The translations under genes and the position numbers were made by a program. From the NCBI GenBank assembly GCA_044892525.1, contig CM097888.1, positions 75,702,001 through 75,766,000 of the forward strand: a DNA stretch of 64,000 bases, given 5' to 3'. The stretch comes from Schmidtea polychroa. Lineage: Eukaryota. The notes under the pieces are model-generated. The model did not search any database, was not told the DNA's origin, and worked only from the letters and a program-made list of their open reading frames with translations. Positions 1 to 42,600 of the stretch are shown here, one piece after another. Position 1 is the stretch's first letter. Each line of letters begins with the position of its first letter.

Positions 1-80
1 ATTAAATGATAAAACACATTTTAATTAACTAAGTCAAACAATTCACAATATATATTTTATTATTCACATAAATTTAATTG

Positions 81-3000
81 TTAAAGTGCTTGTTTCGATT
101 TGCATTCATTTCTAGACATAGCAGTTGCAATATGCATTTGGCGAATCTTATAGTGACCGTAGGCATAACTTTCATTACAATTGTACCAATACCTTTTATC
201 GTCCAAACATTGGAGAGCTCGTTTTTCTGTCATGAAAGTATACAACTGATGATTGACACTTCCTATTCTTTTTTGTGAGATGCTCACTGTTCCACCATCA
301 GTATACACTTTTTTATAGGCTTCATGTGTAAGATTAGAGTTTGTAAGTCTTATTCCTTTGGCTTTTAGAGTGTTTTTATCGCCTTGGAGTGAGTAGCACT
401 TGGGTCGAAGAAACACCCATTCTTTATATTGATTTCCTTTATTCTCATCCTTGAATTTCCCGATTACCGAACAAATTTTATCTGAGAACAATGGATCAGT
501 CACTGGATAATTTGAAGTATCTAGGAGCCCATCGGCAATCATTTTTGGATATAGTTGTAAGCGTAAATCTACATTTTTACACTCTAAAAAGAAGGAATCT
601 GTGTCACCGGCTACGATATTAATTTGACAATTGAATTCTTCTCTATAACTCTGTAGTTCTTTATATTGAAACTGGTACATGCGAAGTTTGGATAAATCAA
701 GTACGGTTTGTCCAATATACATTGGTCTATCTAAACACACAATTTCCTTATTGAGTATAACAGCAATGAGATCATCCGCAATCTTGATGCTACGACGAAA
801 CATAGGATTACTACAATAAGTTATCAATCTTTTGCTTTTGCTGCATAATCTCAAATTTATACGTTTCTTCAAGTTTTCCACAGTTTTACCGTATAAACTG
901 TTGTTCTTTAACTTATAATAATCTCGCTGAAACGAATCTGTACTAGCTGCTCTCATTTTGGTATTGTAATCAATATAACCTTTGAAAATAGCCACTTGCT
1001 TGAATTCTACAGCACGATTAACTTTTGTGACTTTTGCGCCGTAACTCAACCACTCTGTCAAAACTCTACCATTAACTACATAGTTTTTCTTAGGCTCATG
1101 AGTTAACAACAGCTTTTCAACTTTACTACCAGGTGGATAACAAAGCTCAGGAGCTATAGGTAAATCATCTAGTTTATCTTGTATACTATCAGGAATGACG
1201 ATGTCAACCTCTAGAACATATCCAAGATCTCCATCAAACTTATCCCCATTTGCACATCTTTCAACAATACCATTCATTTCAGTCTGATCATTTATCCATC
1301 TAAATTCACCAACAGGAAGTTTTTGCGACAGCGCCCATCCATATAAATTATTAACATCTAGGTATGACATTTGTGTTGATTCATCAGCTTCAACATGATG
1401 TTTGTTGATAAATGTCATTCCACCACGAATACCAGCTTCAAATAAACGGTAAAGCTCTGGATCTTGAATAAGTTCTACTGGTTCAGGTAACTGTTTAATA
1501 GCTGATGCCCAACTTAATCCGGGTATGGAAACAAACGATAGAGCCTCAAGTCCATCTTCGTCAAATGTTTTTTCTCTGAAAGCTTCAAAAACATCGGCCA
1601 ACAGAAAAACATCCAACTTGAGATATACTAGCATGTAATCTAGCAGTGTCTCACAGTTGTATTGTCGCCAGATTCGATTTGCATGTATATAATCTTCTTG
1701 ACTAACTCCCTCCCAAATCGGTGGTAATTCTGTTATTGACTGTAAAACATCCATTGATGTAGCCATATCATAAGGAAATATGCCTTTACCAGTTATTAAA
1801 TGCGAATTGAAAATCTTTGAAGTAAGTGGAAGACGTGGCAAGTTTTTTGATAAATTTGCCAAGCTGCTATTTAAAAATTGTAAAGAATCAATGAATCTAA
1901 TTCTTCTGCCTTTCGATGTCGCTGTAAGTGTGAGAAACTTTTCTGTTGATTGAGGAATAAGAATTAAATTCCAATCGGGGAATTTTCCAATTGCATATTT
2001 TAATATATGATGAATGTCATATCCACGAAGATTATGAAATACAACAGGTAAAGACGGATTGATTCTTCTAGCCAAATTACAATCTTGACACGCTGCTCCG
2101 AGATATTGACCGGTAAAATGATCATGATCCCGAACAGGTATATTGATAATCTTTTTACAAAGGTAGCAATGAGTTTGATTCGTAAATTCTTCCTGCTGTT
2201 CCCAAGTGAGTTCCATCATTTCCTTCGATCCATTAATTTTATACCACGGATAAACTATGTCTGTAGCTATATCATCCAATGCTTGTATAAACTGAATGAT
2301 ACAGTTTTTCCCAACAAATGTTTCATTTCGAATCGGACAACCTTGATGAAGAAGCACAAATTCAGATGCAATCGGCTCATGTTTTTGGAAGTGCTTGTCA
2401 TCTAGAGGTAATATTGATTCAAAGTCCGCGTAGACAACAAACTGCTGTTTTATAGTTTTACTCCAGTCTTTAAATTCGATATATTTATTCTCTGGCATTG
2501 AGTATAGAGTCGTCCACTCCACATTCTTCCTACAAAGACCTATATGTCTTTCAAAAGCAGGACGTTTTTGAAACCCATGAAGACACGTATGACACCAATG
2601 TGATTGGATTCTGACTCCTTCTACTCTATCTCTGTAATTGAGCAGTCGATCGAGATTAGTTACAGCCAAAAAATGATAATTTAATTCTAAAATTTAGTTA
2701 ATATTTTTAATGATTAAAAGAAATATTACCTTCTTCAATCAATAAGAGATATAATTGACATCCCGTCGAAGTACTTCTATATACCAAGTCAACGAACGGA
2801 TTCTTGAAAATATCATTAGTTTTTTGTTTAATTGGATCTTTATTATATTTGAGAACATTGATCGCTAGATTAGGATTCATTGCCTCAAATTGGCAAATGT
2901 TAACCAACTTCATTGGAAACCAATCTGATTTCCATTTTAACTCTAAATATATATATATTTTTAGAATGATATAAATATATATTACCACTTAAATTATATT

Positions 3001-4058
3001 TCATTACTCTTTCTCTGTGGTGTTTTATGTCATCATAATGTAATACGGCCAGTATGCTATATAAAAAGCAGAATTGATCATTATTTTGAACATTAACTAA
3101 AGCCTGGCAGTTTTTCAGGTAATTTGGCGTTTTAATGTAACTTGAACCTAAGTAAATATCTTGATTTATATATATAATAATGTAAATAAACTTACCAGAT
3201 ACATGTATTATGTCTGATAATTTAGTTAAAATCATAGTAACTTCTAATATTTTATGAATTCTCCACCCACTACTTTGTTGAGTGTATTTCTCCAACTTTT
3301 CTTTTAATTTTTCAATTCCATCATTAATAAATGAAGATGACATTGTAATTGCTTTATTCGACAAACACCATTTTTTAATTTCACCATCCTCTTTGATAAA
3401 CTCTGCACAAAGTCCAAATTGGATTTTTACTGTACCCATTCGTTGAATATGATCTTCTATTTCTCTGATGAGACAATCTGGAACAACAATGTCAGGAGAA
3501 TTAATTGCAGATACATCGCTTGTCAATTCAACACGAGAACCATTTAAGTCAGACTCCCGACGTGGACACAATTGTATGTTAGAGTCTCCATTTCCGTAAA
3601 ATATTGACTTTCGTTTTGTGGTGCCAGAGTTTTGTCTAACTATATTTATAATTAATATTAAACAACTTAAATAACATAACTTGTAACATATTCTTTAATC
3701 TGCTTAGGATCGTATGATGTATTCATTTTCGGTTGTACTATAAAAAATTAATAATTGTTAATAGTAGAAAGAGTATTACTTTTAGTGATCATCCTGCTCT
3801 TCGTTTCTTCGAATCTTCTAAGATGGTGTCCGTGTTGTCGTACAAACATTAACCACCTACCTGGTGATATAATGAGACATTCCGGACATATGTAACCCGA
3901 TAAGGTAGAGTCATTTATCTTGAAATATGATGATGTAACTGATTTACAGTTCTCCACATCTTCATGACTTTCGGCAATACAAAATTTATATAAACTGCAT
4001 CCGTTCACTAAAAGAAAATAATCATTAATATTAGATAGAGAATAAAAAATTATTCACT
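81..4058 (-). CDS. polB: Protein-primed family B DNA polymerase (Polinton/Maverick type), spliced; left mirror copy, 1236 aa predicted
   Basis: Mirror image (12218-x) of 8160-12137. Introns at 4008-4057, 3738-3779, 3640-3680, 3148-3195, 2943-2985 and 2687-2729. Joins ORFs 3748-4008, 2900-3571, 2707-2988 and 81-2669. The translated ORFs are identical to those of the right copy. Confidence 0.88.
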
Positions 4059-4319
4059 TATATAAGTTAAATTAAAAGTTTAAATGACAAACATTTGAAA
4101 AGTTACTGCTTATATATTACACATGATTAAATTCTGACCAATCAAAATCAAGGAAGGGGTAGGAAAAATAAATATATTCTGACCAATCAAAATCAAGGAA
4201 GGGGTAGGAAAAATAAATGTGTTACAGTATTTTAAAAGTTCAATATATTTTAAAACACATTTTGATGCTAAAGTTGACTTATTTAACATTTTCATAATAA
4301 TTTAATAAAAATAATGTGA

Positions 4320-4790
4320 TGAACCCACAAAGTAATATCATTTTTCATCAAATTGCAAAACAGTAATAACGTTTTCATAAAATTGTAACAAAATAATAAC
4401 ATATTTCAGATAAATTTTCAACAGTTGTAAAATATTTAAACAAATTGTAACAAGATTAGAAAATATTACAACAAAGTAGTAACATATTTCAGAAAATTTC
4501 AACAAAGTTGTAAAATATTTATCAAATTGTAACTAAAATAATAAAAATATTGCAACAAAGTAATAAAATAATGATGTTAATTGGGACAAATCAATACATT
4601 ATTTCGAAGACGGACAACAAATTAAAAAGAATATTGTAATAAATTGTGAAGTCTTTCAGTAAATTACAACAAAGTAATAACATATTTCGGAAATATTTCA
4701 CCAGATGTAAAATATTTAAGCAAAATGTTATAAGATTATAAAAATATTGCAACAAAGTAATAAAATAATACAACATTTTAAACTCTAGAT
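4320..4790. repeat. Degenerate AT-rich tandem repeats (AAATTGTAACAAA / AACATATTTCAG type); mirror at ~7428-7898
   Basis: Recurrent imperfect phrases such as caacaaagtaataa, aacatatttc and gttgtaaaatattt. Confidence 0.7.
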
Positions 4791-5830
4791 CAATCCATTT
4801 TATAGAAAATTAAATTTTATCTCTATAATATATGAATAAATATACAAGGAAATTACGTTAACTGTATGAAAAATACAAATTTATCGTAAAAAACATGTGT
4901 GTATTACACACAACATACAAGACATAATTTTTAATCAAGCTATTTTATAGAAAATTAAATTTTATCTATATATTATATGAATAAAATCCTAAGAAAATTA
5001 CGTTAACTATATGAAAAATACAAATTTATCTTAAAAACATGTGTGTATTACACACAGAACAAGATACATAATTTCTAATCAATCCATTTTATAGAAAATT
5101 AAATTTTATCTCTATAATATATGAATAAATATACAAGGAAATTACGTTAACTGTATGAAAAATACAAATTTATCGTAAAAAACATGTGTGTATTACACAC
5201 AACATACAAGACATAATTTTTAATCAAGCTATTTTATAGAAAATTAAATTTTATCTATATAATATATGAATAAATATTCAAGGAAATTACGTTAACGTAT
5301 AATAAATACAAATTTATCATAAAAACATGTGTGTATTACACAAAAAAAAAACAAGATACATAATTTCTAATCAATCCATTTTATAGAAAATTAAATTTTA
5401 TCTATATAATATATGAATAAAATCCTAAGAAAATTACGTTAACTATATGAAAAATACAAATTTATCTTAAAAACATGTGTGTATTACACACAGAACAAGA
5501 TACATAATTTCTAATCAATCCATTTTATAGAAAATTAAATTTTATCTATATATTATATGAATAAAATCCTAAGAAAATTACGTTAACTGTATGAAAAATA
5601 CAAATTTATCGTAAAAACATGTGTGTATTACACACAAAGCGACAAACTAAAATTGTAATTGAGCCATTTTATAGAAAATTAAATTTTATCTATATAATAT
5701 ATGAATAAAAATCCAAGAAAATTACGTTAACCGCGCGAAAAATACAAATTTATCGTAAAAACATGTGTGTATTACACACAAAGCGACAAACTAAAGTTTT
5801 AATTGAGCCATTTTGTAGAGAATTAAATTC
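4790..5830. repeat. ~145-bp tandem array (7 units plus a partial), left arm
   Basis: The TTTTATAGAAAATT anchor recurs at 4798, 4943, 5087, 5232, 5379, 5523 and 5667, with a variant at 5811. Most units contain the inverted repeat TGTGTGTA-T-TACACACA and all contain ATTACGTTAAC. Confidence 0.95.
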
Positions 5831-5900
5831 TGCCTATACATGGTTACACTTAAATCCCAATCGAACAAAGAGAAAAGAGAGAAAAAGAGAGAGAAAAAAC

Positions 5901-6235
5901 AGTAGAGTAGGGTATTGTGTGGACCCGGGAACAAAGACATATGACGTCATCGATGACGTCACAAAGAAATATGACGTCATACCCCCCTACCCCCCCCCCC
6001 GGGGGAGGGGGGGGGTTTTTAAATTTTTTTTTTTTTAAATTTTTTTTAAAAATTTTTTTTTTAAATTTATATTACGTTGCGGTATTTTAAAATTTATATT
6101 ACGTTGCGGTATTTTAAAATTTATATTACGTTGCGGTATTTTAAAATTTATATTACGTTGCGGTATTTTAAAATTTATATTACGTTGCGGTATTTTAAAA
6201 ATATATTACGTTGCGGTATTTTAAAATTTTAATTA
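5901..6235 (+). mobile_element. End module, copy 1: AGTAGAGTAGGG start, three TGACGTCA, C-run/G-run stem, six 27-bp ACGTTGCGG repeats
   Basis: TGACGTCA at 5942, 5954 and 5972; C-run 5982-6000 followed by G-run 6001-6015; ACGTTGCGG at 6074, 6101, 6128, 6155, 6182 and 6208. Homologous to 44740-44998 (minus) and 63128-64000. Confidence 0.8.
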
Positions 6236-6387
6236 TATTTTATTCACATCATTCGTAAGGTCTTGAAGAGATCTATGCAAAGGTTTCACCCGGGTCCACA
6301 CAATACCCTACTCTACTGTTTTTTCTCTCTCTTTTTCTCTCTTTTCTCTTTGTTCGATTGGGATTTAAGTGTAACCATGTATAGGCA

Positions 6388-7428
6388 GAATTTAATTCTC
6401 TACAAAATGGCTCAATTAAAACTTTAGTTTGTCGCTTTGTGTGTAATACACACATGTTTTTACGATAAATTTGTATTTTTCGCGCGGTTAACGTAATTTT
6501 CTTGGATTTTTATTCATATATTATATAGATAAAATTTAATTTTCTATAAAATGGCTCAATTACAATTTTAGTTTGTCGCTTTGTGTGTAATACACACATG
6601 TTTTTACGATAAATTTGTATTTTTCATACAGTTAACGTAATTTTCTTAGGATTTTATTCATATAATATATAGATAAAATTTAATTTTCTATAAAATGGAT
6701 TGATTAGAAATTATGTATCTTGTTCTGTGTGTAATACACACATGTTTTTAAGATAAATTTGTATTTTTCATATAGTTAACGTAATTTTCTTAGGATTTTA
6801 TTCATATATTATATAGATAAAATTTAATTTTCTATAAAATGGATTGATTAGAAATTATGTATCTTGTTTTTTTTTTGTGTAATACACACATGTTTTTATG
6901 ATAAATTTGTATTTATTATACGTTAACGTAATTTCCTTGAATATTTATTCATATATTATATAGATAAAATTTAATTTTCTATAAAATAGCTTGATTAAAA
7001 ATTATGTCTTGTATGTTGTGTGTAATACACACATGTTTTTTACGATAAATTTGTATTTTTCATACAGTTAACGTAATTTCCTTGTATATTTATTCATATA
7101 TTATAGAGATAAAATTTAATTTTCTATAAAATGGATTGATTAGAAATTATGTATCTTGTTCTGTGTGTAATACACACATGTTTTTAAGATAAATTTGTAT
7201 TTTTCATATAGTTAACGTAATTTTCTTAGGATTTTATTCATATAATATATAGATAAAATTTAATTTTCTATAAAATAGCTTGATTAAAAATTATGTCTTG
7301 TATGTTGTGTGTAATACACACATGTTTTTTACGATAAATTTGTATTTTTCATACAGTTAACGTAATTTCCTTGTATATTTATTCATATATTATAGAGATA
7401 AAATTTAATTTTCTATAAAATGGATTGA
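6388..7428. repeat. ~145-bp tandem array, right arm (mirror copy)
   Basis: Reverse complement of 4790-5830. Confidence 0.95.
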
Positions 7429-7999
7429 TCTAGAGTTTAAAATGTTGTATTATTTTATTACTTTGTTGCAATATTTTTATAATCTTATAACATTTTGCTT
7501 AAATATTTTACATCTGGTGAAATATTTCCGAAATATGTTATTACTTTGTTGTAATTTACTGAAAGACTTCACAATTTATTACAATATTCTTTTTAATTTG
7601 TTGTCCGTCTTCGAAATAATGTATTGATTTGTCCCAATTAACATCATTATTTTATTACTTTGTTGCAATATTTTTATTATTTTAGTTACAATTTGATAAA
7701 TATTTTACAACTTTGTTGAAATTTTCTGAAATATGTTACTACTTTGTTGTAATATTTTCTAATCTTGTTACAATTTGTTTAAATATTTTACAACTGTTGA
7801 AAATTTATCTGAAATATGTTATTATTTTGTTACAATTTTATGAAAACGTTATTACTGTTTTGCAATTTGATGAAAAATGATATTACTTTGTGGGTTCATC
7901 ACATTATTTTTATTAAATTATTATGAAAATGTTAAATAAGTCAACTTTAGCATCAAAATGTGTTTTAAAATATATTGAACTTTTAAAATACTGTAACAC

Positions 8000-8110
8000 A
8001 TTTATTTTTCCTACCCCTTCCTTGATTTTGATTGGTCAGAATATATTTATTTTTCCTACCCCTTCCTTGATTTTGATTGGTCAGAATTTAATCATGTGTA
8101 ATATATAAGC
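8000..8110 (+). promoter_or_regulatory. Putative Pol II promoter of polB: duplicated 45-bp unit with reverse CCAAT boxes, then a TATA-like element (mirror at 4108-4218)
   Basis: ATTTATTTTTCCTACCCCTTCCTTGATTTTGATTGGTCAGAAT at 8000-8042 and 8045-8087; ATTGG at 8031 and 8076; TATATAAG at 8102-8109, about 50 bp before the predicted A|TG. Confidence 0.6.
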
Positions 8111-8159
8111 AGTAACTTTTCAAATGTTTGTCATTTAAACTTTTAATTTAACTTATATA

Positions 8160-11100
8160 AGTGAATAATTTTTTATTCTCTATCTAATATTAATGATTAT
8201 TTTCTTTTAGTGAACGGATGCAGTTTATATAAATTTTGTATTGCCGAAAGTCATGAAGATGTGGAGAACTGTAAATCAGTTACATCATCATATTTCAAGA
8301 TAAATGACTCTACCTTATCGGGTTACATATGTCCGGAATGTCTCATTATATCACCAGGTAGGTGGTTAATGTTTGTACGACAACACGGACACCATCTTAG
8401 AAGATTCGAAGAAACGAAGAGCAGGATGATCACTAAAAGTAATACTCTTTCTACTATTAACAATTATTAATTTTTTATAGTACAACCGAAAATGAATACA
8501 TCATACGATCCTAAGCAGATTAAAGAATATGTTACAAGTTATGTTATTTAAGTTGTTTAATATTAATTATAAATATAGTTAGACAAAACTCTGGCACCAC
8601 AAAACGAAAGTCAATATTTTACGGAAATGGAGACTCTAACATACAATTGTGTCCACGTCGGGAGTCTGACTTAAATGGTTCTCGTGTTGAATTGACAAGC
8701 GATGTATCTGCAATTAATTCTCCTGACATTGTTGTTCCAGATTGTCTCATCAGAGAAATAGAAGATCATATTCAACGAATGGGTACAGTAAAAATCCAAT
8801 TTGGACTTTGTGCAGAGTTTATCAAAGAGGATGGTGAAATTAAAAAATGGTGTTTGTCGAATAAAGCAATTACAATGTCATCTTCATTTATTAATGATGG
8901 AATTGAAAAATTAAAAGAAAAGTTGGAGAAATACACTCAACAAAGTAGTGGGTGGAGAATTCATAAAATATTAGAAGTTACTATGATTTTAACTAAATTA
9001 TCAGACATAATACATGTATCTGGTAAGTTTATTTACATTATTATATATATAAATCAAGATATTTACTTAGGTTCAAGTTACATTAAAACGCCAAATTACC
9101 TGAAAAACTGCCAGGCTTTAGTTAATGTTCAAAATAATGATCAATTCTGCTTTTTATATAGCATACTGGCCGTATTACATTATGATGACATAAAACACCA
9201 CAGAGAAAGAGTAATGAAATATAATTTAAGTGGTAATATATATTTATATCATTCTAAAAATATATATATATTTAGAGTTAAAATGGAAATCAGATTGGTT
9301 TCCAATGAAGTTGGTTAACATTTGCCAATTTGAGGCAATGAATCCTAATCTAGCGATCAATGTTCTCAAATATAATAAAGATCCAATTAAACAAAAAACT
9401 AATGATATTTTCAAGAATCCGTTCGTTGACTTGGTATATAGAAGTACTTCGACGGGATGTCAATTATATCTCTTATTGATTGAAGAAGGTAATATTTCTT
9501 TTAATCATTAAAAATATTAACTAAATTTTAGAATTAAATTATCATTTTTTGGCTGTAACTAATCTCGATCGACTGCTCAATTACAGAGATAGAGTAGAAG
9601 GAGTCAGAATCCAATCACATTGGTGTCATACGTGTCTTCATGGGTTTCAAAAACGTCCTGCTTTTGAAAGACATATAGGTCTTTGTAGGAAGAATGTGGA
9701 GTGGACGACTCTATACTCAATGCCAGAGAATAAATATATCGAATTTAAAGACTGGAGTAAAACTATAAAACAGCAGTTTGTTGTCTACGCGGACTTTGAA
9801 TCAATATTACCTCTAGATGACAAGCACTTCCAAAAACATGAGCCGATTGCATCTGAATTTGTGCTTCTTCATCAAGGTTGTCCGATTCGAAATGAAACAT
9901 TTGTTGGGAAAAACTGTATCATTCAGTTTATACAAGCATTGGATGATATAGCTACAGACATAGTTTATCCGTGGTATAAAATTAATGGATCGAAGGAAAT
10001 GATGGAACTCACTTGGGAACAGCAGGAAGAATTTACGAATCAAACTCATTGCTACCTTTGTAAAAAGATTATCAATATACCTGTTCGGGATCATGATCAT
10101 TTTACCGGTCAATATCTCGGAGCAGCGTGTCAAGATTGTAATTTGGCTAGAAGAATCAATCCGTCTTTACCTGTTGTATTTCATAATCTTCGTGGATATG
10201 ACATTCATCATATATTAAAATATGCAATTGGAAAATTCCCCGATTGGAATTTAATTCTTATTCCTCAATCAACAGAAAAGTTTCTCACACTTACAGCGAC
10301 ATCGAAAGGCAGAAGAATTAGATTCATTGATTCTTTACAATTTTTAAATAGCAGCTTGGCAAATTTATCAAAAAACTTGCCACGTCTTCCACTTACTTCA
10401 AAGATTTTCAATTCGCATTTAATAACTGGTAAAGGCATATTTCCTTATGATATGGCTACATCAATGGATGTTTTACAGTCAATAACAGAATTACCACCGA
10501 TTTGGGAGGGAGTTAGTCAAGAAGATTATATACATGCAAATCGAATCTGGCGACAATACAACTGTGAGACACTGCTAGATTACATGCTAGTATATCTCAA
10601 GTTGGATGTTTTTCTGTTGGCCGATGTTTTTGAAGCTTTCAGAGAAAAAACATTTGACGAAGATGGACTTGAGGCTCTATCGTTTGTTTCCATACCCGGA
10701 TTAAGTTGGGCATCAGCTATTAAACAGTTACCTGAACCAGTAGAACTTATTCAAGATCCAGAGCTTTACCGTTTATTTGAAGCTGGTATTCGTGGTGGAA
10801 TGACATTTATCAACAAACATCATGTTGAAGCTGATGAATCAACACAAATGTCATACCTAGATGTTAATAATTTATATGGATGGGCGCTGTCGCAAAAACT
10901 TCCTGTTGGTGAATTTAGATGGATAAATGATCAGACTGAAATGAATGGTATTGTTGAAAGATGTGCAAATGGGGATAAGTTTGATGGAGATCTTGGATAT
11001 GTTCTAGAGGTTGACATCGTCATTCCTGATAGTATACAAGATAAACTAGATGATTTACCTATAGCTCCTGAGCTTTGTTATCCACCTGGTAGTAAAGTTG

Positions 11101-12137
11101 AAAAGCTGTTGTTAACTCATGAGCCTAAGAAAAACTATGTAGTTAATGGTAGAGTTTTGACAGAGTGGTTGAGTTACGGCGCAAAAGTCACAAAAGTTAA
11201 TCGTGCTGTAGAATTCAAGCAAGTGGCTATTTTCAAAGGTTATATTGATTACAATACCAAAATGAGAGCAGCTAGTACAGATTCGTTTCAGCGAGATTAT
11301 TATAAGTTAAAGAACAACAGTTTATACGGTAAAACTGTGGAAAACTTGAAGAAACGTATAAATTTGAGATTATGCAGCAAAAGCAAAAGATTGATAACTT
11401 ATTGTAGTAATCCTATGTTTCGTCGTAGCATCAAGATTGCGGATGATCTCATTGCTGTTATACTCAATAAGGAAATTGTGTGTTTAGATAGACCAATGTA
11501 TATTGGACAAACCGTACTTGATTTATCCAAACTTCGCATGTACCAGTTTCAATATAAAGAACTACAGAGTTATAGAGAAGAATTCAATTGTCAAATTAAT
11601 ATCGTAGCCGGTGACACAGATTCCTTCTTTTTAGAGTGTAAAAATGTAGATTTACGCTTACAACTATATCCAAAAATGATTGCCGATGGGCTCCTAGATA
11701 CTTCAAATTATCCAGTGACTGATCCATTGTTCTCAGATAAAATTTGTTCGGTAATCGGGAAATTCAAGGATGAGAATAAAGGAAATCAATATAAAGAATG
11801 GGTGTTTCTTCGACCCAAGTGCTACTCACTCCAAGGCGATAAAAACACTCTAAAAGCCAAAGGAATAAGACTTACAAACTCTAATCTTACACATGAAGCC
11901 TATAAAAAAGTGTATACTGATGGTGGAACAGTGAGCATCTCACAAAAAAGAATAGGAAGTGTCAATCATCAGTTGTATACTTTCATGACAGAAAAACGAG
12001 CTCTCCAATGTTTGGACGATAAAAGGTATTGGTACAATTGTAATGAAAGTTATGCCTACGGTCACTATAAGATTCGCCAAATGCATATTGCAACTGCTAT
12101 GTCTAGAAATGAATGCAAATCGAAACAAGCACTTTAA
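8160..12137 (+). CDS. polB: Protein-primed family B DNA polymerase (Polinton/Maverick type), spliced; terminal-protein-like region, vOTU-like protease, Zn finger, exonuclease with HNH/EndoVII insert, polymerase
   Basis: Motifs: ExoI VVYADFES, ExoII FHNLRGYD, ExoIII YLKLDVFLLADVFE, pol A YLDVNNLYGWA, pol B KLKNNSLYGK, pol C AGDTDS, LRPKCY, KAKGI; EndoVII-like CYLC..VRDHDHFTGQYLGAACQDCN; N-terminal SGWRI, GSSYIKTP, NNDQFCFLYSILA and NYHFLAVTNLDRLL. Manual splicing: exons 8160, 8211-8438, 8481-8537, 8579-9022, 9071-9232, 9276-9488, 9532-12137 = 3711 nt, one open frame. The core from 9532 is certain; the upstream exons are inferred from GT-AG sites that keep the frame. Confidence 0.9.
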
Positions 12138-12156
12138 CAATTAAATTTATGTGAAT

Positions 12157-12162
12157 AATAAA
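12157..12162 (+). terminator. Candidate polyadenylation signal of polB
   Basis: AATAAA 20 bp after the TAA at 12135-12137; weak evidence in AT-rich DNA. Confidence 0.35.
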
Positions 12163-12462
12163 ATATATATTGTGAATTGTTTGACTTAGTTAATTAAAAT
12201 GTGTTTTATCATTTAATTATTCATTTGTCCAATTAATTTAGATAATTAGTTTCAAGTAAGAAATATTATTTTTGTGTTTATTTTATTTATTTATTTATTT
12301 TTTCCGAAATATTAATATCCAGTTTATCTAAAATTAACTCAGCGTTTTATTTTATAATAAATTAAATAATTTCTAATTAAAATTTATTCAAATTGAATAA
12401 TTACTAATTAAAATTTTATTCAAATTGAAATATTATCGTTATAATTTACCTCTTGTTAGAAT

Positions 12463-12606
12463 NNNNNNNNNNNNNNNNNNNNNNNNNNNNNNNNNNNNNN
12501 NNNNNNNNNNNNNNNNNNNNNNNNNNNNNNNNNNNNNNNNNNNNNNNNNNNNNNNNNNNNNNNNNNNNNNNNNNNNNNNNNNNNNNNNNNNNNNNNNNNN
12601 NNNNNN
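12463..12606. other. Assembly gap ending the right arm region (other gaps: 13481-13667, 14203-14439, 44355-44525, 57074-57208)
   Basis: Runs of N. Confidence 0.99.
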
Positions 12607-13003
12607 AATAAAATAATTAATTAAGAAAATTAAAAAGAAAAAAAAAATAGAAGTAATTAAATAAAATTAAAAAATAAATAAATTAATTAAAAAAAAAAAA
12701 TAAATAAAATAAAAAAAAAAAAAAATAATAATAATAATAATAATTAAATAGCGTAAGTAATTAAAATAAAATATTAATAAACTAATAAATTAATTAAATG
12801 TAATAAATTAAAATAAAACATAATAAAATAATTAATTAATAAAATTAAAATGAAAAAAAAAAAAAAAAAAAAAAAATTAAAAAGAAGTAATTAAATAAAA
12901 TGTTAATTAAAAAAAAATGATTCGATTGACCTATATTTGATCTGGACATTGGGATGACCTTGAAAGTGTCCTGGAGTCCTTACTATTCACTACTTATATT
13001 ATA

Positions 13004-23689: not shown

Positions 23690-25216
23690 TAATTATTAAA
23701 TGATGAATTGTAAAAAAATTAGTTTATTATTTTCTAACTCAACACATTGTAAAAAGTATTTTAAATTAAAATTTTACTTATAACTATGTAAAATTTAAAT
23801 GAATGGCAAATTTCATTTTATGATAAAACTCAAATAATTTTAAAATTTCTTAACTTTTTTTAAAAGAATTCCTTTTTTTTGATTCATTTAATTTTTATAT
23901 TTTGAAATTTGTGGATTTTTATGTATTATTATTTCTTGATATCAATATTTTATATCATTACATTCCGAACTAACTAGGTAATTTATAATATTAATATTAA
24001 AATATTATAATTATATAGAAATTATAAATGTAATAAAAATTATTTAATTTTAAATTTATTAAAAATACAAATATTAATTTTTTTTCAATTTTAATTGATA
24101 TAATAAAATAATTAAAATAACTAAAATAATAAAATAATTAAATAAAAAAATTAATTAAATGAGTTATTTTATTAAATTTTATTAAATTTCTTTTTGTAAT
24201 AGATTTATATAATTTTAAATTTAATTTATCTTATAATATAAAAATAAAGATATATTAAAATATATACCACTTAAAATGAATTCTTTAAAATGTGATGAGA
24301 TAGCATTATCATTATATATAAAAATTATCAACCGAAAACAAGTATTGTATATCATATATACAAAACCCACCGATCTTAAAACTTCTTTTTTTAAAAAAAT
24401 TGAAAAATTGAAAAAAACGAGATTCACGTTTTAAAGAGGACAATTACCTCTTTCATTATCAACAATTTGGTAAATTCTTTTGTAAGGAAAACGGCTGAGT
24501 TTTCAAATCTCGCGTAATAATAAATTTGAAACCTTTTTCTAAATCAGAATAATAAAAATTATACTTTATTTAGATCAAAATGGCAAATAAGCACCTGACA
24601 CTGTGTGAGATATTATTCTTTCCATTGAGAAGTACACTATTTACAATAATTTTTTTATTTTTAAATGTTTTATTAATAATATTTAAATTATAAATTTAAT
24701 TAAAATTATTTCATTTAAAATTTATTAATAATAATAAAAATATTTAATTATTTTATTGATATAATAAAATAATTAAATTCATTCTACAAATGAATTATCT
24801 TATTTCGTTACATTCCGAACAAACTAGCTAATTTAATTGGATTTATGTTTTAAAATTAACATTAAAATATTATAATTATATAGAAATGAAATTTTTAAGT
24901 GTTTCATTAACAATATTTAAGTTATAAATTTAATAAGAATTATTTAATTTTAAATTTATTAATAAAAATTTTACGTTTTTTCGATTTTATTTGAAATAAT
25001 AAAATAAAATAATTAAATTTATTCTACAAATAAATTATTTTTTTTAAATTAATGATAATTTTATTTTTGTGATAGTTTTGAATAATTTAAAATTTTTTTA
25101 AATTTAATTAAAAGAATTTTAGCCAATAGTATTTATGAAAATTAATAAAATTAAATTGTTAATTTTCAATTTTGGATCATGTTTAATATCAAATTCATCA
25201 AATTAAATATACAAAT
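23690..25216. repeat. Upstream flank of Rpt5 copy A, duplicated (inverted) upstream of copy B at ~49591-50770
   Basis: GCACCTGACACTGTGTGAGATATTATTCTTTCCATTGAGAAGTACACTATTTAC (~24591) has its reverse complement at ~50160-50215; 24210-24420 matches 50244-50430. Confidence 0.85.
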
Positions 25217-26476
25217 ATGAATAACGAACATATGGAAATAGATGAAGAGATCCTCAACTTGTCTCCAAGAGACCTGGAATTCAGATTGCATTTACTCGAC
25301 AACGAAATTAGTGTAATGAATTCTGAAATCAGACAAAACAAATTCAATATGAAAGAAAAACTTGAAAATATAGATTCTATTAAAAAAATGATAGAAAAAC
25401 AAAAAGTTCCTCCATTTCTTGTTTCAACCATTGTGGAAATTCTCAATATTGAACCGGACGAAGAAGAATATGAAGATGGAGCTAATATTAATCTGGACAA
25501 TAAAACTACTGGAAAATCTGTTGTCATCAAAACGACTAATAGGAAAACTGTTTTCCTTCCAAATACAGGCTTGATTGATTCTGACGAATTGAATCCTGGA
25601 GATTTGGTTGCTGTCAATAAAGATTCTTTTATTCTTATAGAGAAATTGCCATCAGAAATCGATCCTCGTGTGAAAGCAATGGAAATTGATGAAAAACCAA
25701 CAGAAAAATATAGCGACATCGGAGGATTAGATTCGCAAATTCAAGAATTAATAGAAGCCGTTGTATTACCAGTTATTCACAAAGAACAATTTAGAGCAAT
25801 TGGCATTCAACCTCCGAAAGGAGTTCTCATGTATGGACCACCTGGAACTGGTAAAACTCTACTAGCTAGAGCTTGCGCTGCACAAACGAAAGCCACATTT
25901 ATCAAATTAGCAGGTCCACAATTAGTTCAAATGTATATTGGTGATGGCGCTAAATTAGTGAGAGACGCCTTTGAATTAGCCAAGCAAAAGGCTCCAACTA
26001 TCATTTTTATTGATGAACTCGATGCTATTGGAACAAAACGGTTTGACAATGAAAAATCTGGTGATCGAGAAGTTCAAAGAACCATGCTTGAATTACTAAA
26101 TCAACTCGATGGTTTCCAACCAAATGATGATATCAAAATAATTGCTGCAACAAACCGAATAGATACGCTTGATCCTGCCTTGTTAAGAAGTGGAAGAATA
26201 GATAGAAAAATCGAATTTCCAGCTCCAAATGAAGAGGCAAGAGCAAGAATTATGCAAATCCATGCAAGAAATATGAATGTATCGAAATTAGTAAATTTTG
26301 AAGAATTGTCAAGATCTACTGAAGATTTCAATGGAGCCCAATGCAAAGCTGTTTGTGTTGAAGCTGGAATGATTGCATTACGAAATGGATCGAAAGAGAT
26401 TGTCCATGAAGACTTTATTGATGCCATTTTAGAAGTACAATCAAAGAAGAAGCCCACTCTCAATTATTTTGGATAA
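25217..26476 (+). CDS. PSMC3: 26S proteasome AAA-ATPase Rpt5 (regulatory subunit 6A), intronless, copy A
   Basis: 419-aa ORF; EDGANINLD, Walker [32 protein letters not shown], Walker [31 protein letters not shown]. Confidence 0.95.
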
Positions 26477-31800: not shown

Positions 31801-34800
31801 TTGATTGATTTATTTATTTAATTAATTATAATTAAAAATATATTGGACTCACATTTTTTCGAAATAATTCCAAAATACTTTAGTAAAAGACATAAAATTC
31901 CTAAAAAGCCTGAAAATTAATTAAAAATAATTTATAATTATATTGTTGATTAAAAGTAATATTTAAGTACTTGAATAATGATCTCATATCTATATGGATC
32001 AAAATTCAAGACTTAAACTTTACTTAAAATTAAATATCTTACCTGAAAGCCATTTCTAAAATGGCTAAAATAAATTTCCAAAAAACATCAAATTCATATT
32101 CAAATTGATGATGATTAATTGGTAAATATAGCCAATCGGTAAATACAGTGAGTGAATTGCTTTACACGCCAACCACCACTATAGAGAATGTATCTCAGTG
32201 GTGTTTGGTGTACACCAAAGTGCAATTGATAATCATTAATGAGACATTGATTTAGAAATGTCAATTGAGCTTTGTTTTAGTTTAAGTTATAATTTAAGTT
32301 TTTATGTTAAAATAATGAATAAAAAAGTAAGATAAATATAAATTTAATTTTTCATAGTTCACCTAAAATATCAAGTTTCTTCAAACATTTAAGGAAGAAT
32401 CTTTTAATATGATTATTCAAATGATTATACTATTTTTCAAATTACTATAATCTGGTTTTCGAAGTTCCTCGTTAACTGCTTGGAATTTTGCAGTAAATCT
32501 GTCTGCTAAATCAAATCAGCCGAAGAAACTTTAGTCCTTACACCATTTATAATTTTGCTCAGAACACTTTCGATCGGGTTCAAAAATGGACTATATGATA
32601 GGCAACTTTTCAATTTGATTATTCAATGAAGATATATTATTGTGGATGGATGCATTATCGTGAATCAAAATGAATCCAGAGCCATCGTTTCATAGTCAAT
32701 TCGGTTAGAAATGACTGATATGATTCCTTTTTAAAAGAGCCAAAAATAATTGGTGAATGGATTTGCTCATCTTTGGATATTGCCAAAACTAGGGAAATAT
32801 TGGGACCTCCATTTGTTGGCATATTGTTAAAATTTGATTGCCTACTCATGATCTACCAATCTCTTGTTCGTTCATGTATTGAAAGAGCATTCATCTATGA
32901 ATTTCTTGAAATGGAATAATCGATTCTGATGAAGCTTCTGAGATATCCTCAAACATTTTTTTTATAATTAATTGTTTTAATATTGAAAATTTTTAGCTAA
33001 TTAAATGTCCGTATGCTAAATCAATGTCCTATTGTGTATTTTTTATTATAGAAATTTTGTGAACCGTGTTTGTGTGATTTATTTATTTTTCTTCCAACAG
33101 CGATTTTTTCTATCTTTCTATAGTGTAATTGCCAATTTAATGCCACAAAGCTAATTCAATGTCACTTCTGGTTACTACACAGACATTTAATTATAGGTAA
33201 GTTAATATTTATATTATAAAAAACCAAATCAAAGTCCATTCGATGATAATCAATTGCTGGTTGGTGTATTATACCTTAATTTACAGCACAACGTATTGTA
33301 ATTTATGCTCTTATGTGTATTGTTATTTATTGATTAAAGAACACAGAAAACCAAAGTATCAAGGCGATTAATATCTGAATTCGAAGATTTTCAAATTTTA
33401 ATGCAATTATCTACGTTAAATAAAAAGTTAACATTTAAAGATTTTTTTTCAACTTCACTTATTTTTATTAGGGAAAACAAATCGATTTACATTCATAATG
33501 AAAATAAATGATTTTATTGATTATATTGAAAGTTTTTCAGTTACTTTAAATCACCCTGGAATTATAAATTGAATGTTTATTTTTGAGAATAAAAGTTTAG
33601 GCTATATCATTTATAATTACGTACATTATTAAGATAGCATAATCCACAATCATGTGATCATTGATTGAGTGAATTCTAAAAATATTTGAAAAAATTTAAC
33701 AGACCTTTCACATCTATTCCGTGAGATCGTGCCTCGCAAGCAAATGGCGTTAAAAAATCAGACATTACAGAACATTTCTGAGCACGGTCTACTAAACGTT
33801 GAGCACAAGCCAGTAATGATTCACGTTTGCGATTCTTTATAAGAATTATATTTTTGATATTTTATTTGACTGCATACTTGAATTAGCGATACTTCCTGAA
33901 GTATCATAGATGTGGGTAAATTATCAAACAGCCCATCCGTTCCAACGACAACGATGTCTCCTTGCTGCATTTGAAATTGATCCTGGAGAGCATCATCAGG
34001 ACTATTATAAATAACTTTTTTTATGTACTTATTTGATTAATTCATTTAAAAAGCTCTTAAATTTCAATTGAAATAAAATGTATCAAAAGTCTGCAAGATT
34101 TCATGTAACAAACTACGTGTGCAAAGTACGTGAGTAGTGAGCAATCAAATCATATTTTATGTAATTTTTAAATTTAAATTTTTTTTCCAAAAAATATTAT
34201 TTTTTAAATCATCCTGTCACTATTTACACTGCATGATTTGTTTTAAAGTATGACTGAAAGTGTAATTTAAATTTCTGAGTCCCGGAATTTTGAATTTGAC
34301 TTTTAAATAAAAAAAATTGATCACTGATAATTGACTTTAAGTATCTGTTACATAAAAATCAGTAACACTTGTGTTAGTTAAAATCATTGAATAAATTGAG
34401 ACCATTTACTGCTTGATGATAGTTGTTGCTATCTTGCAGACCAACAGGTCTAAAACCTTGGATTAAATGCATATTAAATAACTAATAGTGTTATTGTTAG
34501 GATAAATTAAGATAATTTTCACAGAACATAATTAATTAGGGTAATTTTATTTTTCAAATGATCTTGGAAAATATTTACGAGGACAGTACTCCAAGAACAC
34601 TTTCATTTTGAGGGAAGAAATAAATTCGTGAATCTTAATTGTTTTTTAATTGTTGCAATGACATGCTAGTGCCCTCTTACATCTTTTTAGGAGAAAACTG
34701 CTCCTAAAGTATCTAAATTCGCATTGGTGTCTAATATAAATTCTTTTCTGAAATCTGGGAATACCTATACTGGTTTGTTTACAGTGCTTCTTTCATTTCT

Positions 34801-37800
34801 TCAAACACGTCGCGACAAATTCATTCTTTGGAACACATTCAAATTGGGAAATAATTTGGAAAATTCCAGTTTTAATTTGTAACTTTTACAAGCAGAAATA
34901 ATTTGTGCTATTTTAAATAATATTTAATATAAAATAAGGTTTACTATAAAATATGAGAAAACCAGTATCCCTTGCTTTTAACTCAATTGCAGAAAACTTT
35001 TCGAAGTCCCTTATCTTTCATTCACTATTTGAGCTTCTTATTAAACTTTGGTTTGCTAAAGTTTTCCTGGTCTTTCTATTACCTCGTGATAAATTCATTC
35101 TTAGGAATATTTTTAAATTGGAAACAAGGTATTTTTTAGTTAATTTTTTTGAATTTGGCCCCTTGCCAAAAAATCATTGGTTAAAATTATCAGTAACAAA
35201 AAAAATTCAATGAAAAGATTGATTTTTGAATCTTTGCTATTTTTTTCAGAAGTATATTTACAATGTTCGACATTGATTTGAGACAATATAATATTATTAA
35301 ATAGCAAAGAAGTCCAAAATCAAGTATCAAGAAAATATAAAAAAAGAATAATTTCAAATAAAAAATCATTTAATAAGTAAATATAAATAAAATTAAATAA
35401 ACATTCATAATCTATCTATTTTCATTTTATAATAATCAAATATTCCTCAGTCAACATAAAATCCGATTATTGTCATTGGGCGAATGATTAATGATAAGTG
35501 ATGATTAAGTTAGTGGGAAATAAGAGTCAATTATAATAAATTCCGAAATGTTTATATGATAATTATAATATTTAATTTGTAAAAAGATTTGTAAAAACAA
35601 CGTGTCGCAGAATTAAAGGAACAATTAAAAAATACTGATTTAAATATTCTAAATAGAATGATAGTCAGAATATTTAAACAAACTTATTTACGACATTCTT
35701 CTTCTATCATTGTTGAACCGAGACGAAGGAAATATTCTCCTGTTTATTCGTGTGACTGTAGCGTTTGACGTCTCGATTGGTCCCGCTGATGAATCGTTTA
35801 GGGTTTTCGTTTACGCCTGGGTTATACTTATAAATGTCTGATCTTCAACATTAAAAAAAATTTCTAACGAATGATTGTTAACTGGTGGTTCTAGATGTTT
35901 TATTGACAATGTTAATTCTTCATTTTTGATGTTGAATTCTATCGAAGTACAGATAAATGGTATCGTCTTCGAATGATCAATTTTGGCGCTTTTATGTAAC
36001 TTAAATAAGACATTACAATTTGGTTCATATGGGAAATAGAGTAAAAGTTATCAATAAGTCTTTGATTCAGGGACACATAGATAATCAATATTTCCTTCAA
36101 AAAAGTTTTAAACCATGCAGTGGTGCAATGTTTGCATGTCAAACAGAGTAAACATGGTTAAAGTCTGTCAATTATGATTTGGAAATTATAAAAAATTGAA
36201 GATTCGATGATGAAATGCCAAACATGTCAACAAAAATTTGATCTTATTGCCATTAAAAATACTTGGGCGAATTTTTTGCACTTTACAATCAATAATGCAT
36301 TAAAAAATAAATACTACGATGTGACAGTTTTCAAATTTCGTCAAAAGTCTCAAGAATACTACATTTAATCATTATTTACACTATTTTGCATTTTAATGTC
36401 AATAATGCACTTTAAAATCAATACCAAGAAATATACTTCAAAACATGACATCAAAAGTTTCAACAATAATACATGTAAACATTTTTTGCACTTTATTGAA
36501 CATTTAAATCAATATTAAACATGTAGATTTGCAAATATAAAGTACTCGTAAAAATCTCTTTTTTATACTTACAAAAATAAAGTAATATATTGTCTAACTC
36601 AAAAAAAATTTTTTCTTAGATTAAACCAACTTCTGGTGGAGATACAAAAGAGTTGCGGTGAACAAAATTACTCCATTCTATAAGCAAAAAGAAATTTTCA
36701 AAAATCTCCAAGAAAACCCTGCACTTAAGTATTTTATACAACCACCCCGGAGGGGGGTTCTTACAAATTTAAAATATTAGTACACCAATCCCTCGCTAAA
36801 CGAATTAATTCGTTCGGAAAAAATTGAACGTAAATCGAAATTTCGTTATCGAATTTTTATTTTAATTATCGGTAATATAAACCAAGAATTTGGATAAAAA
36901 AAGGTAATTTATAAATAAAAATATCTAATCAATTCATATTATTGAAGAAAACATTTGTAATTCAAAAACAAAAATAATATGTATGTATTTTATTTATTCA
37001 TAACAAAAAAATATATCTATTACATAAATAATTCAAGGAACATTAAACATTTAATTAACTTAGTAAATTCATATTACAGTAAAATCTTTTTTACACAATT
37101 TTGCAGAAAATCATGTAAATAATTAAATTTTTTTTTTAGAATTCGTGTTAAATCAAAAATAACGTGTAAAAAAATTTAAAATTTCTTGTTATTTCAAAAT
37201 CGTGTAAAAAATGATTTTACTATATTCTTATACGTATTATGTTTATGTACTCCTGTTTATGCACTCTAGATCTATGCGCTGGAATCCAAATCTACGTAAG
37301 AATCCAAATTGTTAAAGTTTTTTTTATTAGCAGAACTGTCGAAGCTATTGGTGATAAAAATGAGTCCAACGTTGGTTTTTTTGCCGCATATTTTTTTCTC
37401 TATATATCTGTTTATAACAGTCGATAGCATCGTTGATTACTCGATATACTTTTAAACGGTGTTGCTCGATATGATCTTTCTCGTTTAAAATGCATATGCC
37501 TTCTTCAAAACTCGATAGAGCAGTAGATAAGTCCTTGGTTGTGAGACGTAGCTGAGCTTTTTCAATATTATTTTCGTTTTCTTTCTCATACTCTTCTGGT
37601 GGTAGATTTTGTTCCAGCTATATCAAATCTTCATCTGAAAGACTGTCCATGTTAGCCTCTAACAAGACTGCAATATCAGATTCTCCTAATTCCGTAAACC
37701 CAAGTAGATTTCCAAGTCTAACCACATCTGCGACAATTCCTGAAAGGCCTATAGCATGAACATCAGAACATCATCTGCGTTTACGTTGTCTGGCCAAATA

Positions 37801-40800: not shown

Positions 40801-42600
40801 AGACGATTTAATTAAATAATTAGAGCTCAATATACAATATAACAGTATAAATCGTTATAAAATGATAGTAATGTATCAGGGACAAATGTGTATAGCCGAC
40901 AAGCGACCCCCATATGAATGGGCGATTTACTTAGATAACTAAAGGTGCTTGCTTATAAAGTATATTATTAGCGAGGGAGAGGCAGAGGGGATTGCATAAA
41001 TAGGTAAAATGTAGGTAAATAATGTACTTAATGCAATAATACAAAACAGTGGAGCTTTATTACATAAAACCACAAATCGATCATTTGGAGGTCCCTGTTG
41101 ACTGGTGCAGACCGTGCCGTTGTTTGACATTGTTTTCTGAGGAAAATTAAGGAAACTTGGCCCCCCCTTTCTCGTGGGCCCCTATGCAGTGCTTACTCTT
41201 GCTATATGGTTGCTACACCCCTGAATTTTTGGTTTCCAAAACGAATATATCGTATCTGGTATCCGCGGTTATATAATCTCATATCCGTATCCGATATCCG
41301 CGAAAATATGACGATTATTCTTTTAAATTTTAAAAATTGGCTTGGAAAATATGTTTTTATAGCTACCCAATTACGCCACCAGCTGTTCAATGTCGTCCTC
41401 ATTCACTTCCCCAAGGAGACAATTTAATCGAGAACTGGGAGTTCCTCTTTGTGAGTTAACCCCTCACGGTTATCTCCTAGAATGCAGTCAGGCCACAATG
41501 TTCTCCAATCAGAATTCAGCGTTCTCTTGGTGACCCCATTTCAAGCTTTATCGATGATTTTGAGACACTTCACGAGAATTCTCAAGTTACTCGTGTTACA
41601 TAACTTAGCTCGTTTATCAAGTTAAAATTTATTTTAAAAATTTGCTGGTCTTGCAAAATACTCACAAACAAAATTACTCGCAATCCAAGGTTTTACGGTG
41701 TCATGGTCTTTTTTGCAAAGCGAGGGATTGGTGTATATATTTTTAAATAACTTCATAAAGTAATAACTCATTACCCAATTAAATTTATTTGTTTGTTTTA
41801 ACTACTTTGCATTTTTTTTAAATAACTTCATTATATTCGTTATTTAGATAAAAAAAAACCGTTGAGAAAATTAACGAATCAACCAACTTGTCTTCGTGAA
41901 ATCGAGGCTGCTGTGATGGGGGTAAGAGAGCGATTTGAAACGGAGTATTAAAAGAATGCTTTTGATTTACGGATTTAGCAATTAATTGTTTATTTCTAAT
42001 AACTAGATATCCACTGTCACCGAGATTTGCTGAATAGAGTTTACCGGTATTTCTACACAGTGACAGAAGGCAAAATGTAGCACTTCCTTAAAATTGGTAA
42101 AATCAATTAACTTTTTCCAACTGTTATTTATATATTAAATACCTAAAACAGGCGCTTTCAAATTTAATACATCATAATATGCTGATTTAGCCAAATTTAA
42201 AGGATTATCAGAAGTATAGCAACCATTTTCTACTGTTCTACAACACATTTTCATAAAGCTAGTTGAAAACAAACTTGGATTAATGCCATATGATCTCCAT
42301 CCACCGACACCATCGGCTACTCCTTTATATTAAATAAAGTAATTTTAAATGCTTTATTTATGTATTACCTATTACAAAACAATCGGAATTTTTGGCGATA
42401 AAACATGAGTCATCTCCATACTTCCATTTAGAATTTATTTTGTTTTTATATTGAGTATTCTTGTTATCATATCCAAACACGGCAGTTTGAAATGAGAATT
42501 TCTGGCAAAATGACCCGGAAGTCCATTCTCGTGAATCAATATTAAAAAATGTGCTGAAAGCCCTGATTGCTATTCGGAAATTTTGAAGTAAAAGACTCAT
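28860..42600 (-). CDS. PPTC7: PP2C-family phosphatase PTC7 homolog, six exons, 324 aa predicted
   Basis: Exons 42369-42600, 42143-42322, 41888-42086, 33878-34001, 33705-33834, 28860-28969 (975 nt, GT-AG, frame kept). Motifs YGDDSCF, GVADGVGGW, NLGDSGYL, HSFNTPFQ, GTDGLFDN, TPFACEA, GGNPGDITV. The N-terminus resembles a mitochondrial presequence. Confidence 0.88.
32450..32960 (-). mobile_element. Tc1/IS630-like DDE transposase remnant in PPTC7 intron 5
   Basis: DEA..., GPNISLVLAI..FGSFKKESYQSFLTEL, DNASIH and FLNPIESV fragments with stops and frameshifts. Confidence 0.7.
37270..38580. mobile_element. Tigger/pogo transposase C-terminal remnants in both orientations (minus ~37270-37850; plus ~37960-38240 with 3' end ~38580)
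   Basis: Minus: VVRLGNLLGFTELGESDIAVLLEANMDSLSDEDLI. Plus: YFQEHDPNVERALKFQRDINKVLSQYEEVY. Terminal-like CCGTGTAAAACGAGGGATAGGTGTA. Confidence 0.7.
39286..39830 (-). mobile_element. Tigger1-like 3' remnant with TIR
   Basis: TA|CAGCGGTACCTCGG terminus at 39284-39299; WETVQNVVEKHHSNKAVAVRAVNLFNDNVMSHFRIIIKRRQKQ. Confidence 0.8.

Follow-up and report, generated by a model that had tools for sequence, protein, structure and literature searches.

Polinton/Maverick elements and adintoviruses share a protein-primed polymerase B (pPolB, PF03175) with terminal-protein and vOTU regions (PMC11161782), and Polintons are bounded by inverted repeats of 100-1500 bp and flanked by target duplications of 5-8 bp (10.1101/2023.08.22.554363). 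Their genes are described as intronless both for intact vertebrate Mavericks (PMC8097293) and for the core genes of nematode Mavericks (10.1101/2022.07.12.499685), which bears out a statement made in an earlier reading of the present DNA from its letters alone (the sequence-only reading). Here we analyse a pPolB gene in a stretch of 64,000 nucleotides (nt) from Schmidtea polychroa (GCA_044892525.1, CM097888.1, positions 75,702,001 to 75,766,000, forward strand; hereafter the window), which, as that reading had proposed, appears to be a Polinton-type polymerase gene with host-type spliceosomal introns. The element that carries the gene resembles described Polintons in its inverted ends and in a 6-bp target duplication within the reported range; it differs from them in the six introns of its pPolB, in its gene-bearing arms of ~6.7 kb, and in that integrase, ATPase and capsid genes were not found in the element stretches searched. 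We consider it likely, with a probability of about 0.72, that these are real U2-type introns, inherited within a clade, in the pPolB of a nuclear-expressed Polinton lineage, and that the gene lies within a foldback, non-autonomous derivative.

Spliceosomal-type introns inside such elements have a precedent in dinoflagellate Polinton-like elements, where they are copies of intron-making transposons, acquired mostly after integration (10.1101/2025.03.18.643946); the introns of the window, in contrast, share no family sequence, sit at codons shared across diverged lineages and are all in phase 1. The duplication of a linear replicon's end as an inverted repeat recalls the snap-back (self-complementary) subgenomes of adeno-associated virus (AAV) (PMC8235507) and, in its duplicated end, a hairpin deletion derivative of the kalilo linear plasmid (known from a title cited in PMC11161782). 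These are not chromosomal transposons with target duplications, whereas the element of the window is integrated, dispersed and equipped with an intact polymerase in each arm. Adenovirus E2B, likewise a protein-primed polymerase gene that is expressed in the nucleus and spliced, has a very small first coding exon; its terminal protein and polymerase are made from spliced RNAs as separate open reading frames (ORFs) sharing a leader. The gene of the window, unlike E2B, fuses both parts and carries host-like introns of 41-50 nt inside the reading frame.

Results

Six introns interrupt the gene on the forward strand, at 8161-8210 (50 nt), 8439-8480 (42 nt), 8538-8578 (41 nt), 9023-9070 (48 nt), 9233-9275 (43 nt) and 9489-9531 (43 nt), exactly where the sequence-only reading had placed GT-AG introns. 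Each begins with GT, ends with AG and is 83-91% A+T, beside exons of 30-37% G+C; by these ends and by their host-like size and composition they are U2-type introns. Computation agrees with the earlier assertions that all six are in phase 1, that the internal exons (228, 57, 444, 162 and 213 nt) are multiples of three, and that intron removal gives a single frame: the exons contain no in-frame stop, and the spliced coding sequence totals 3711 nt, or 1236 codons plus a stop. Retention of any of five introns would introduce a stop or a frameshift, and retained intron 4 would add 16 residues in frame. When every frame-keeping GT-AG pair up to 30 nt from each end was enumerated, one solution was found at junctions 2 and 3 and three, five and two at junctions 4, 5 and 6, where homology favours the pairs given above over the alternatives. 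A polyadenylation-like signal, AATAAA, stands behind the gene at 12157-12162 (+). The likeness in size to introns of a host gene in the window was also borne out: the gene at 33835-42376 (-), which its motifs suggest to be PP2C/PPTC7-like, has introns of 46, 56 and 43 nt in phases 1, 1 and 0, and a gap of several kb between its motif-bearing parts.

The region upstream, at 8000-8137 (+), resembles an RNA polymerase II promoter, with a 45-nt duplicated unit containing reverse CCAAT boxes, a TATA box at 8102-8109 and an initiator-like TCATTT whose A at 8133 lies 31 nt past the TATA box, as judged by consensus sequences. Transcription would likely start at 8133, and exon 1 (8133-8160, +) would then hold the 5' untranslated region and the first base of the start codon, which intron 1 splits; this split and an in-frame TAA upstream, both claimed earlier, are present. 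Only three ATGs occur in 8100-8230: that at 8124 precedes the initiator-like site and is closed by TAA, and those at 8193 and 8218 are out of frame. The homologs P0002, P0010 and P0025 start with M-N at the place that matches the spliced start, and a comparable TATA layout is found upstream of pPolB in five of the related loci introduced below (L117-L119, L122 and L140). Upstream of the promoter lies a 144-nt tandem array of 7.2 units (6389-7429).

Homologous proteins argue for precise removal of the segments. Among 120 listed homologs, the 67 of at least 1090 residues were used at the junctions, and every one of these reads across junctions 4, 5 and 6 in an uninterrupted ORF; 44, 8 and 41 of the 67 show no gap within 8 residues of the respective junction. 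Junctions 2 and 3 lie in a variable linker that 15 homologs span, gap-free in 3 and 6, and because this linker is poorly conserved both junctions rest on frame and composition. Read through with an X at each junction, the gene aligns near full length to uninterrupted homologs (residues 4-1214 with P0002, 56%). Removal of the introns thus leaves a frame collinear with uninterrupted homologs at junctions 4-6 and at the start, and weakly so at junctions 2 and 3. For many of the 67 the alignment begins no earlier than residue 100, and these homologs may have spliced leaders as well.

Genomic copies point the same way. In a set of arms selected for the highest core identity, 30 of 30 retain all twelve splice dinucleotides; among them, indels of 1-2 nt are confined to introns and the sole exonic indel is 3 nt; intron and exon substitution rates (0.011 and 0.009 per base) are not separated in arms this young, which makes that comparison uninformative. 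In a copy of a sister subfamily the exons are 94-100% identical, intron 4 is only 66% identical and intron 5 has been enlarged by (TA)n to about 150 nt, the ends of both being kept.

Transcript evidence comes from contigs of 4 of 14 runs, none on record as RNA and taken as such by guess; as contigs only, they leave level, strand and ends unreadable, and the parts uncovered in X2 and X3 carry no evidence. In one X1 contig the 13 letters of a loose end preceding 9530 are identical to the end of exon 6, which amounts to an exon 6-exon 7 join. The exon flanks of intron 6 occur in the genome 674 times at a gap of 31-60 nt and never at 0-30 nt; given that no intron-less genomic copy exists, spliced RNA is the simplest source of the join unless the genome of the sample differs, and the contig lends weak support to splicing at junction 6. 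Introns 1-5 are presumably spliced as well. The X1-X3 contigs also show, within exons, a densely divergent 64-nt patch at 10376-10439 and a switch to other sequence at 9192, a pattern that suggests mosaic subfamilies.

The exons correspond in part to protein domains, although Pfam reports nothing in exons 2, 4, 5 and 6. Exon 2 (8211-8438, +, 228 nt) encodes a Cys/His-rich N-terminal region whose residue pattern suggests zinc binding, and exon 3 (8481-8537, +, 57 nt) is a linker. Exon 4 (8579-9022, +, 444 nt) covers the whole of a predicted little-finger/PAD-like domain: modelled alone it folds with a pLDDT of 88.7, the closest structural match of the model is the little finger of Pol IV, 4IR1 (Z 8.2, root-mean-square deviation 2.4, 92 aligned residues), 8 of the top 9 rows of structure matches include Y-family polymerases or the little finger (the exception being rank 4), and the exon matches an adintovirus protein (E 1.2e-5). 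By its model, exon 4 is one whole terminal-protein domain. 4IR1 is also the structure with which Polinton terminal proteins were compared in a study that proposes cleavage in the linker between terminal protein and vOTU (PMC11161782). Exon 5 (9071-9232, +, 162 nt) holds the first part of the vOTU with its predicted catalytic Cys (role after PMC11161782), exon 6 (9276-9488, +, 213 nt) the middle, and exon 7 (9532-12137, +) the vOTU His strand, the exonuclease and the polymerase (PF03175, E 7.5e-31) with intact catalytic motifs. Both vOTU residues were placed by alignment to a homolog model, P0001, on which junction 4 maps to the linker that joins terminal protein and vOTU, junction 5 to a vOTU loop and junction 6 to the turn that leads into the catalytic His strand. 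On these models, skipping of exon 4 would remove the terminal protein cleanly, and skipping of exon 5 or 6 would break the protease.

The introns are shared with relatives. In 26 close metagenome loci and families B and C of the host, where introns were identified by eye before a check by script, all 28 complete introns of eight lineages are in phase 1 (six in the window, four in L122, three each in L135 and L140, four in L129, one in L130, three in B and four in C), and introns at positions 2, 4 and 6 are found again in proteins with no more than 45-57% identity; relatives of the gene share the phase and some of the places. L122 (45-57% identical by segment) has one of its four introns in the Gly codon of intron 4 and another within a codon of intron 6. 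The intron-4 codon is also used by host subfamilies and by L130, which has intron 4 only; its sister L142 has intron 6, at the same or an adjacent codon as in L122 and L138, and the available sequence of L138 and L142 begins inside this equivalent. Between head and terminal protein, L135 (= L126), L140 and L129 carry 3, 3 and 4 introns; in L135 and L140 the first of these corresponds in position to intron 2. The element of L126 is complete, with genes for ATPase, integrase and capsid. An unbroken main ORF preceded by 3 and 4 leader introns characterises families B and C, L117, L118, L119 and L127 have no intron from the start codon onward, and for intron 5 no counterpart was seen in relatives beyond the family of the window element. 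As controls, introns of a non-polymerase neighbour gene in L139 have phases 2 and 0 and three host introns phases 1, 1 and 0. The neighbour gene (L139:996-2190) is itself spliced, lies downstream of pPolB and has an N-terminus like the Cys/His-rich head of the polymerase before it diverges, the two phases being those of its introns 1 and 2. Quick trees interleave intron-bearing and intron-free forms with modest support, and in both the branch of the window has a support of only 89 and a different sister. The introns are an old, patchily shared trait of the pPolB clade and not an adaptation of the copy in the window.

Two features bear on how a uniform phase may arise. Two adjacent 66-nt exons of L129 are identical at 53 of 66 positions (0 of 10,000 shuffles), and since duplication of a symmetric exon with its intron keeps the phase, same-phase introns can spread without selection. 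Five of the seven donors in families B and C follow the same AATG, introns 4-6 of the window split codons after G, and the codon make-up gives G-ending exons a per-site chance of phase 1 of 0.46-0.58.

The gene lies in the right arm (6289-12994, +) of a palindromic (foldback) Polinton derivative that occupies 1-12994 of the window and 13,770 bp overall, its left end being 776 bp before window base 1 (G000:C4:75701225). The termini are AGTAGTGAAT...ATTCACTACT, with the 6-bp target duplication TATATT on both sides. The right arm is an inverted copy of the left: 1-5929 is the inverted copy of 6289-12217 with zero mismatches, and the two pPolB genes stand head to head, one per ~6.7-kb arm, the second having the same six introns at 81-4058 (-) (mirror position, 12218 minus position). 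The sequence-only reading had described the right-arm gene and made no mention of the palindrome or of the second copy (4058-81, -). A run of N at 12463-12606, in the A-rich 3' region of the right arm, breaks the arm comparison there. In the central segment (5901-6317) 29-nt inverted AGTAGAGTAGGG... ends surround a 359-nt non-palindromic spacer with a 27-nt tandem repeat; the segment measures 279-442 nt in other copies and has 99+99 exact matches in the genome. This centre resembles a miniature element with its own AGTAGAGT ends, but lacks a target duplication, and internal units similar to AGTAGAGT occur in the inverted repeats of family C. Its 27-nt repeat is the TACCGCAACGTAA unit, which also forms palindromic arrays at 63274-64000 and 44726-44826 of the window that may be a gene-less relative of the element.

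The element belongs to a young, dispersed family. Its exact 25-nt terminus occurs 79+82 times in the A+T-rich, 781-Mb genome, which implies about 80 elements; the polymerase core is present in at least 52 copies at 99-100% identity, the 674 junction-6 matches suggest further subfamilies, and many decayed copies exist. A 6-bp target duplication flanks 11 of 11 arm pairs (ten independent sites, as two pairs share flanks), in one case extending to 9 bp within a microsatellite. We considered an assembly artefact from a foldback read, which the different unique flanks and the duplications of all 11 pairs exclude. Arms within one element differ by 0-5 changes per 4.4 kb (mean 1.1, 10 pairs) and arms of different elements by a mean of 6.6; since arms are closer within than between elements, one arm is a copy of the other, made either during replication or through conversion.

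Queries for integrase, ATPase and capsid genes matched nothing in 20 of 20 further stretches (all arms or deletion forms), nor in 8 of 8 samples taken on the upstream side of unpaired copies; the integrase queries came from families B and D, and the query set was without the maturation protease. The only long ORFs inside the element are pPolB pieces and one antisense frame, and no full-length parent was seen among the roughly 43 assignable of 48 listed forward termini or in the 8 samples from unpaired copies. The element thus has the protein-primed polymerase with terminal-protein and vOTU regions, the inverted ends and the 5-8 bp duplication of a Polinton, and in the stretches searched shows none of the integrase, packaging ATPase and capsid genes of an autonomous one. 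Polinton-type ends, fresh duplications, no integrase of its own found and autonomous relatives in the same genome fit a non-autonomous derivative, as which we file it because the integrase and capsid searches found no match.

Full Polintons with integrase, ATPase, capsid and AGTAG-type ends are represented in the genome by families B, C and D. In family B the polymerase lies near the right end and points outwards, and the family also occurs as polymerase-only palindromes, which show how a foldback form can arise. Among more distant loci (about 26-36% identity), 54 of 61 reach the N-terminal part, 38 in a single frame and 16 with stops or shifts. A complete Polinton of a distant group (L059-L061, G000:C2:131647000-131672999; polymerase at 28% identity, capsid, integrase with a PLA2-like domain, ATPase) is nested in a decayed copy of the window element, and a large foldback of the capsid/integrase part of the same distant family (L066-L068, G000:C3:134877000-134906999) shows that foldbacks form in several families.

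Discussion

Under the preferred reading, host RNA polymerase II would transcribe pPolB in the nucleus and all six introns would ordinarily be removed, giving one polyprotein of Cys/His-rich head, linker, terminal protein (exon 4), vOTU protease, exonuclease and polymerase. The leader and linker introns would most likely have multiplied by symmetric exon-plus-intron duplication with the phase kept, and a few others would have been inserted into conserved sequence after the G of GNN codons, phase 1 being favoured in A+T-rich coding sequence. The foldback itself would have arisen when the polymerase-bearing end of a Polinton was duplicated as an inverted repeat (a snap-back product) and the integrase and capsid genes were lost; whenever the element is copied, probably by the polymerase that it encodes, one arm would then serve as template for the other. 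Integration would borrow the integrase of full Polintons in the same genome, a helper suggested by the missing integrase gene together with AGTAG-type ends similar to those of families B and C.

Several points weigh against this reading. Direct RNA proof of splicing is nearly absent: the longest listed contigs cross introns 1, 2 and 3 unspliced (intron 1 in one X1 contig), no joint among the contig joints listed matches an intron, and the single spliced contig, whose run is taken for RNA by guess, extends just 15 letters on the shorter side of its exon 6-exon 7 join. The reading of introns in relatives by eye and then by script could favour tidy solutions. No clear duplicate pair exists among the window's own exons, exon duplication being shown in one relative only, and three introns of the window follow A, where the chance of phase 1 is about 0.3. 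If each origin has a chance of 0.46-0.58, a uniform phase 1 in 6-10 independent origins has one of only 0.04-0.0004, which leaves room for some selection, for example for module exchange. A full-length parent with integrase could be among the unexamined copies (61 of 161 termini), and the identity of the arms could stem from gene conversion after insertion.

Selection of that kind is the substance of an alternative that is compatible with the preferred reading and that we regard as unlikely, namely that families swap N-terminal modules by recombining in A+T-rich introns; only introns of the same phase would give in-frame chimeras, and phase 1 would be kept by selection. It would account for exon 4 as a whole domain bounded by phase-1 introns, for the Cys/His-rich head, which forms its own exon in the window, in B and C follows a phase-1 intron as part of the main ORF and is absent from L122, for the patchiness of introns 4 and 6 among close relatives (L130 against its sister L142), and for the phase excess left after codon bias. 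However, introns 5 and 6 lie within a folded domain, the divergent patches of the contigs (9192, 10376-10439) are inside exons, and intron loss via cDNA would also fit the patchiness. Regulated alternative splicing, by which skipping of exon 4 would yield a polymerase without terminal protein or intron retention would serve as an off-switch in some cells, appears less probable still. The symmetry of exons 3-6, the identity of exon 4 as the terminal protein, the existence of unspliced contigs and a start codon that needs splicing are what such control would predict, yet no skipped junction is among the contig joints listed, DNA, or the hundreds of copies in the genome, would yield unspliced contigs in any case, and four close relatives (L117, L118, L119 and L127) are intron-free from the start codon. 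The suggestion of in-frame skipping in the sequence-only reading holds arithmetically for exons 3-6, but loss of exon 2 takes the start with it and loss of exon 5 or 6 cuts the vOTU.

The same reading had entertained a polymerase on its way to domestication as a host gene, for which the host-type promoter, the introns and the intact catalytic motifs could be cited. This we consider highly improbable, and the suggestion is not supported: at least 52 core copies at 99-100%, 674 junction-6 copies and dispersed insertions with target duplications mark a young mobile family, many copies are decayed, and similar introns occur in full, capsid-encoding Polintons. Hardly more credible is that the segments are A+T-rich insertions of a dead element or recent introner copies, a view to which the mostly unspliced contigs and the introners reported in dinoflagellate Polinton-like elements (10.1101/2025.03.18.643946) lend some colour. 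The GT-AG ends are kept in 30 of 30 arms, the same codons are used in proteins 45-57% identical, and the element family is still spreading; moreover, the six introns do not form a sequence family (even for the best of 15 pairs, 2 of 300 shuffles scored as high or higher) and, when compared with each other only, have no evident inverted ends or flanking duplications. What the window holds is an inherited gene structure in a mobile element, not domestication or a proven control device.

A bolder extension, tentative and in our view rather doubtful, is that the N-terminal third of the clade's polymerase is a series of phase-1 exon modules, with the terminal protein as a swappable or skippable cassette exon, and that polymerase-only foldbacks live as satellites that template themselves and, in exchange for integrase, supply full Polintons with polymerase. 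More generally, Polinton surveys often demand long intronless ORFs and a full gene set, and would miss, truncate or call decayed such polymerases. The shared intron positions speak for long nuclear, spliceosome-dependent expression in a virus-like lineage and provide dated markers of intron gain, loss and exon duplication in genes that are intron-free elsewhere; a polymerase-only palindrome with matched arms, in turn, provides a test case from nature both for the hairpin, protein-primed copying that has been proposed for Polintons and for the provision of integrase in trans. A literature search that left aside the founding Polinton paper, subscription papers, Repbase and supplements found no description of spliceosomal introns in animal pPolB or of polymerase-only foldback Polintons, and the available parts of PMC6431247, PMC12220804, PMC8502044 and PMC8532177 contain nothing on either; Repbase or supplements may already describe these element families.

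Other features of the window

The window contains no tRNA genes, and no look-alike window was found among the other scanned genomes. Three near-identical, uninterrupted frames of 429 residues for a proteasomal AAA ATPase (PF00004, PF16450) lie at 25187-26476 (+), 48331-49620 (-) and 53362-54651 (-), and a further stretch resembling them lies to the left of the window; they are possibly retrocopies or repeat cargo.

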